Assembly (NCBI RefSeq): GCF_002854065.1 | Contig: NZ_CP024147.1 | From: Escherichia coli | GTDB lineage: Bacteria; Pseudomonadota; Gammaproteobacteria; Enterobacterales; Enterobacteriaceae | Length of the DNA: 64,000 bases | Strand: one strand, 5' to 3' | Shown: positions 32,834 through 33,317 of the stretch, in pieces | How positions within the stretch are numbered: position 1 is the first letter of the stretch | Layout of the letters: each line of letters opens with the position of its first letter | The notes under the pieces: generated by a model | What the model saw: only the letters and a program-made list of their open reading frames with translations | What the model was told of the DNA's origin: nothing | Database searches by the model: none | Program-made: the position numbers and the translations under genes

Positions 32834-33317
32834 TATCAGGCCTTGAAGTTGATGAATTTTTATTAATTTAATTTATGAGTGAATGTGACTACTATCAAAA
32901 ATCGCTCATTAATTTTAAGAAGTACAATATAAATAGGTATTTAACCTGTGTTGATTGCTGTTAATAATTTACAAGGTCTAATGAGGAGATATTTATGAAT
33001 GGTTAAAGTATATAGGAATTTAATTCAAAAATAGAGTGGTCTTAAGTTTAATACCTCAATGTGTATCACAATATCCACATTCTTTGTAGGGGGGGGCTGG
33101 AGATTGAGTAGATATTCTTGTTCAGAATGTATCAGCCGATGGTTCTACGATTCTTAAGCCACGAAGAGTTCAGATAGTACAACGGCATGTCTGCAAGAAC
33201 CTGCAACTTTTGACTATCTGGCAACCGGCAGTGTGTTCTCTCACGCATCACAAAAGCAGCAGGCATAAAAAAACCCGCTTGCGCGGGCTTTTTCACAAAG
33301 CTTCAGCAAATTGACGA

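Follow-up and report, generated by a model that had tools for sequence, protein, structure and literature searches.

Poly-G/C tracts acting as promoter switches are described upstream of porA and opc in Neisseria and of fim2 and fim3 in Bordetella, in the latter case as poly-C, and poly-G tracts play the same role in Campylobacter. Established contingency loci carry long repeats that are kept across strains and switch at about 1e-2 to 1e-5 per generation, and switches built on simple repeats are seldom encountered in E. coli with proficient mismatch repair. When we searched the literature for E. coli promoters switched by poly-G tracts, the papers obtained dealt with Neisseria, Campylobacter, Helicobacter and Moraxella, and none described such a switch in E. 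coli. The papers found for espX1, the gene downstream of the tract analysed here, were essentially virulence-gene lists, and none of the titles or abstracts listed among them dealt with its promoter or regulation.

Mononucleotide runs are also known in E. coli as plain sites of mutation. Mutation-accumulation data from the Foster laboratory revealed that the indel rate climbs exponentially with run length, that indels concentrate at 8-G.C runs when mismatch repair is defective and that the 8-G.C runs of leuP, leuQ, leuV and leuT took 95 of the 117 tRNA-gene indels recorded in repair-defective lines (PMC8510543).

We report here on a run of eight G located between espX1 and rpsT in a 64-kb stretch of E. 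coli DNA (the window, i.e. the whole stretch that was analysed). Comparison with other genomes makes it very probable that this run is a young, neutral, lineage-restricted and ordinary replication-slippage hot spot in non-coding DNA and no evolved regulatory switch. As such it belongs to an already known kind of feature, the ordinary mononucleotide-run hot spot.

Position and genomic surroundings of the run

The gene order of this part of the window is fimbrial usher, IS1, espX1, rpsT, yaaY, ribF and ileS. The following features frame the run:

33089..33096, + strand: G8 homopolymer, the derived and longest allele of a polymorphic site according to the allele series and its counts across genomes
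31427..32833, - strand: espX1, an annotated type III effector and pentapeptide-repeat protein (ORF of 468 aa; RefSeq annotation of the homologous locus)
33318..33581, - strand: rpsT, 30S ribosomal protein S20, upstream neighbour on the espX1 strand (ORF; RefSeq annotation of homologous loci)
33267..33290, - strand: intrinsic terminator hairpin of rpsT (terminator-like sites found on both strands; sequence)
30681..31448, - strand: IS1 copy of 768 bp (terminal inverted repeats at 30681 and 31448; BLAST against L002 and L001)
32262..32269, + strand: T8 run inside espX1 (A8 in gene sense), in frame here and the site of an A7 frameshift in strain 100416

The presence of eight consecutive G at 33089-33096 on the + strand (tctttgtaGGGGGGGGctgg) was confirmed by reading the sequence directly, the run appearing as C8 on the sense strand of espX1 and rpsT. 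It precedes the espX1 ATG (32833-32831) by 256 bp, in agreement with the "about 255 bp" given in a preliminary description of this DNA, and follows the rpsT stop codon at a distance of 222 bp. That description had also placed the run in AT-rich surroundings, which holds for the espX1-proximal side (32834-33060; 25.6% GC) but not for the rpsT-proximal side (33060-33266; 45.4% GC), the run lying near the border between the two segments. No other G/C run of at least 8 nt is found within the window, where the next-longest ones reach 6 nt (n = 4). Dinucleotide-preserving shuffles of the window contained 0.96 +/- 1.21 G8/C8 matches and at least one of them in 52 of 100 shuffles, so that a G8 is not improbable from composition alone; only the actual distribution of run lengths in the window makes it an outlier. 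On the rpsT side, the terminator displays a GC-rich stem (33274-33287) flanked on both sides by T/A runs, and this predicted structure would separate rpsT transcription from the G8 tract.

Two further observations concern the intergenic sequence around the run. A small perfect palindrome, TGTGTATCACA (33065-33075), is located about 14 bp to its espX1 side and is kept in all aligned genomes; it could be a protein-binding site, although no match to a known operator was recognised in it. Between the run and the rpsT terminator (about 33203-33216), a 14-bp indel polymorphism, GCAAGAACCTGCAA, is found in the window, BL21 and O104:H4 and is missing from K-12, 20R2R (L003), Z1322HEC0005 (L006) and one G7 strain (TB06052).

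The gene first described as EspX-like corresponds to annotated EspX1, with which it shares the conserved nhaR-rpsT position and the same synteny. Its product is 93% identical to RefSeq EspX1 WP_000129338.1 (locus L003) over 465 of 473 aa, and an NCBIfam HMM search with this product gave no match at E <= 1e-10. The IS1 copy at 30681-31448 stands in place of the terminal ~37 nt of espX1 and of the fimbrial subunit and chaperone genes. The final codons and the stop of the espX1 ORF are supplied by the inserted element, and the C-terminal 8 residues of EspX1 are replaced by IS1-derived sequence. No identical IS1/espX1 junction at the 3' end of espX1 was found among the 5,426 complete genomes. The fimbrial major-subunit and chaperone genes, which elsewhere stand between espX1 and the usher, are absent from the window, and the usher itself (28150-30600) is still full length by NCBIfam PRK15217. 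At the other end of espX1, position 32840 is a G in the window versus a T in 12 of 12 other aligned espX1-carrying genomes. This position is 7 nt upstream of the ATG and would turn the likely Shine-Dalgarno AAGGA into AAGGC (gene sense), a change that may weaken translation initiation of the already truncated espX1.

IS1 has hit the nhaR-rpsT locus repeatedly. In K-12 MG1655 (L014), positions 1445-1545 correspond to the surroundings of window position 33050 and place the end of IS1A on the espX1 side of the tract site, the deletion of espX1 and of the fimbrial operon stopping just short of the run; in BL21, another IS1 is located inside espX1. Two more IS1 copies of the window (49015-49782 and 54935-55702), in the same orientation, surround about 5.15 kb of the carnitine (cai) operon. 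The 3' end of caiC is cut (profile positions 1-433 of 518), caiT is devoid of its first ~79 codons (profile 80-497 of 497), and caiB and caiA, between the two IS1 copies, are intact. This IS1-bracketed layout resembles a composite transposon and leaves the operon disrupted.

Alleles and length changes of the site

The 484-bp intergenic region is present in single copy in 4,301 of 5,426 complete genomes, with 90-99.8% identity. The site was read directly in 22 genomes in addition to the window and in 32 metagenome contigs, the alleles being bounded by the invariant flanks ...ATTCTTTGT and CTGGAGATTGAG:

AGGGGAGT: O157, O104:H4, O111 and many others
AGGGGAGC: L005 and two metagenome contigs
GGGGGAGT: K-12 (site retained as G5AGT)
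AGGGGGAGT: loci L009-L013, on a divergent flank haplotype
AGGGGGT: BL21 and many others
AGGGGT: one metagenome contig
AGGGGGGT: L019 and L021
AGGGGG, AGGGGGG and AGGGGGGG: several genomes each
AGGGGGGGG: the window and strain 100416

Exact-match probes of about 86 nt, applied to the 5,426 complete genomes, detected G4AGT in 1,624 of them, G5T in 940 and an uninterrupted G5 in 5, and the G8 probe matched exactly in 1/5,426. The numbers of G6, G6T and G7 genomes come from the match spans of the G8 probe, with direct reading of 8 of these genomes: G7 in 8 genomes (87-nt matches with one gap; 3/3 of those read were G7), G6 in ~24 (86-nt matches with two gaps; 3/3 were G6) and G6T in ~17 (87-nt matches with one gap and one mismatch; both genomes read were G6T). 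No match span exceeded 88 nt, i.e. no G9 or longer allele occurs among these 5,426 genomes. Uninterrupted runs of G6 or longer are present in 33 of the 5,426 genomes, and an interrupted or short form is found in ~99% of the genomes with the locus. Metagenomes gave a similar picture: a scan for alleles of G6 or longer returned zero matches, and a relaxed scan yielded 32 contigs (14 G5T, 14 G4AGT and four other short forms), with alleles limited to G5T, G4AGT, G4AGC, G3TAGT and G4T. These counts indicate that the long uninterrupted run is derived, rare and restricted to particular lineages. A scan of genome contigs with the 19-mer next to the run, aimed at other species, gave only two unrelated chance matches (Arenibacter and Synechococcus), which are uninformative about the site outside E. 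coli.

The preliminary description considered the run prone to slipped-strand mispairing and called for a check of length heterogeneity between isolates. Lengths do differ between isolates, even on haplotypes that are otherwise identical over 3.8 kb. Flanks were compared over 3,779 ungapped columns (~3.8 kb) extending from espX1 into ileS. Over these columns YJ6 (L015, G7) and ETEC6 (L022, G6) differ by 0 SNPs, BL21 (L001, G5T) and CFSAN064036 (L018, G6) by 7, and PapM-32-1 (L021, G6T) and GPT24-02 (L017, G7) by 17, and the two G8 genomes, the window and strain 100416, by 3. The occurrence of G7 and G6 at 0 SNPs over 3.8 kb identifies the run as a slippage hot spot. Moreover, the flank tree shows uninterrupted runs in at least 3 separate places, and two different backgrounds display the T-to-G change of the base adjoining the run, so that stepwise +/-1 alleles on near-identical haplotypes and recurrence across backgrounds, the two marks of a hot spot, are both observed. 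The tendency to slippage is supported by the G5 to G8 and the G4T, G5T and G6T alleles found between isolates and by the published indel data (PMC8510543).

At a finer scale, one consensus length is shared within each of the clonal sets AHM8C212RI/160RI, BY63/68 and 32F4/33F4/33E, and also within three OkiPb strains and four ETEC17xx strains, which suggests that the run is stable on the timescale separating clonal isolates. All run lengths given here are assembly consensus lengths, some of which may be long-read homopolymer errors.

These patterns are consistent with a stepwise birth of the run. Substitution of the base adjoining it would convert the common forms AGGGGAGT and AGGGGGT into uninterrupted G6 and G7, G4 or G5 being first fused with neighbouring G's in this manner; the uninterrupted run would then drift between G5 and G8 by single-base slippage. 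The window holds its longest and rarest state. We infer this order of the mutational steps from the allele series. The site could accordingly serve as a clean small example of homopolymer birth, where substitutions fuse short G runs and slipping then starts.

Alternative readings of the run

The preliminary description further suggested that the run may act as a phase-variable switch. According to this reading, slippage in the G run would alter how an upstream regulator site and the espX1 promoter are spaced, or how the DNA between them bends, and would turn the gene reversibly on and off. A scan for sigma-70-like promoters by consensus hexamer matching, a method weak as evidence, gave two pairs, the only ones on the espX1 strand of the intergenic region:

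32954..32926, - strand: sigma-70-like pair TCAACA-17-TATATT, predicted only
32898..32870, - strand: sigma-70-like pair TTGATA-17-TAAATT, predicted only

Both are 135-190 bp downstream of the run, on the gene side. A switch remains the best-surviving of the alternatives and is nonetheless highly improbable. Several observations are in its favour: the length of the run varies between isolates, including otherwise identical haplotypes, and this polymorphism between close relatives (the G5, G6, G7 and G8 series; L015 and L022) is the one expected of phase variation; the run is upstream of an annotated virulence effector gene, on the same side; and 8-G.C runs are E. coli indel hot spots. In addition, the espX1 promoter positions are weak hexamer predictions, unusual or activator-dependent promoters are common in AT-rich, horizontally acquired genes, and a run situated 135-260 bp upstream could alter the phasing of a distal regulator site relative to the promoter. 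Against these points, 135 bp or more separate the run from the closest predicted -35 hexamer, and a search of both strands at modelled lengths of 3 to 12 with a relaxed 8/12 match gave no sigma-70-like promoter overlapping it. A promoter with the run in its spacer was rejected on this basis. As far as prediction reaches, the run thus lies outside any promoter, a situation that the preliminary description had itself named as contrary to a switch, and it is by prediction within no conserved ORF, promoter or regulator spacing, where the tract of a contingency locus is expected. Similarly, the long repeat is not kept across the species or a lineage (33 genomes with G6 or longer, 1 with G8), being absent from ~99% of the genomes with the locus and from 32/32 metagenome contigs, and clonal sets are uniform in length.

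The state of the downstream gene also argues against a switch, since espX1 is damaged in both G8 genomes: it is truncated by IS1 in the window and frameshifted in strain 100416, at an internal run reduced from A8 to A7 (gene sense). K-12 retains the site (G5AGT) at ~40 nt from the IS1 end although espX1 was removed by an IS1-mediated deletion. The proposed switch is thus unsupported, with no overlapping predicted promoter, a rare long run, uniform clonal lengths and a damaged target, and we infer that the run has no effect on espX1 expression.

Homopolymers are also found inside espX1. The window carries an A7 run at 32561-32567, where CFSAN064036 has T6 instead of T7 (gene sense), and the frameshifts of espX1 pseudogenes elsewhere fall in the homopolymers 32262-32269 (T8) and 32561-32567 (A7). 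Compared with the upstream G8, these intragenic T8 and A7 runs offer a more direct route to an on/off change of espX1 or to errors of assembly.

A further version of the regulatory reading considers the site a nascent contingency locus. Once point substitutions had produced an uninterrupted G run, its length would tune espX1 or a neighbouring unannotated transcript, via the helical phasing or bending of the DNA that separates a distal regulator or nucleoid-protein site from the AT-rich promoter. Selection, and not mutation bias, could in principle account for the lengthening that recurs in several lineages, and if the locus were of this nature its repeated appearance in separate lineages would have such an origin; we consider this reading very doubtful.

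It is just as doubtful that the G8 is a sequencing or assembly artefact, the true run being shorter (e.g. G7) and miscalled. No residual error of long-read assemblies is commoner than a wrong homopolymer length, and the G8 allele recurs in a single other genome of those compared. However, this independent assembly, from strain 100416 (Gambia), carries an exact G8 on a haplotype 3 SNPs away and is devoid of the IS1 in espX1, hence a different isolate from that of the window, which argues against an assembly error. The graded G5, G6, G7 and G8 series and the internal consistency of the clonal sets point in the same direction.

The least probable reading, that the run belongs to an unannotated functional element at 33060-33266 (a small RNA, a small protein or a + strand promoter facing rpsT), could draw on the ~93-99% identity of this segment across E. 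coli, on its persistence in K-12 beside IS1 and on the rpsT terminator hairpin, which could also end a + strand transcript, but intergenic DNA of E. coli is typically conserved to this degree, no promoter-like site overlaps the run, the 32-aa + strand ORF spanning it is out of frame in common alleles and was rejected, an Rfam scan of 32500-33900 (E <= 1) gave only sub-threshold chance matches below gathering scores (SAM-V in the AT-rich part, with the best E = 0.02, and Leu and Trp leaders over the rpsT terminator), and RNA folding around the run was no better than that of shuffles on either strand (z = -0.18 and +0.89). The run is consequently free of coding, promoter and structured-RNA signals, as expected from the slippage hot spot in non-coding DNA that we favour.

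Although the G8 run is in itself of little consequence, it illustrates that length variation between isolates is insufficient to call a phase-variable switch. Together with the A8 and T7 runs inside espX1, it also marks spots where assemblies and virulence-gene callers will disagree, and the "presence" of espX1 in non-LEE E. coli is often that of a damaged gene.

Comparison with known systems

At the scale of the locus, the window conforms to the variable nhaR-rpsT region formed by a fimbrial operon and espX1: it displays the same order of usher, espX1, rpsT, yaaY, ribF and ileS and an IS1-mediated erosion as in BL21 and K-12, from which it differs by an IS1 junction at the 3' end of espX1 unmatched in the 5,426 complete genomes.

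The run shares with the homopolymer switches of contingency loci a length of about 8 G/C, a length polymorphism and a position upstream of a gene annotated for host interaction. The Neisseria, Bordetella and Campylobacter tracts differ from it in three respects. They sit in the -35/-10 spacer or in the gap between an activator and the -10, whereas the run of the window is at least 135 bp from a predicted promoter; they are long in essentially all strains, compared with less than 1% of genomes here; and they vary within cultures, whereas the site described here is uniform within clonal sets.

The closest counterparts are the 8-G.C indel hot spots of the E. coli tRNA-Leu genes leuP, leuQ, leuV and leuT (PMC8510543). 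Those runs form functional stems whose length is fixed by selection, while the run of the window is non-coding and not conserved. Both are uninterrupted 8-bp G.C runs, and single-base length changes are dominant in both, the site of the window ranging from G5 to G8 on near-identical haplotypes, as expected if the indel rate rises steeply with run length.
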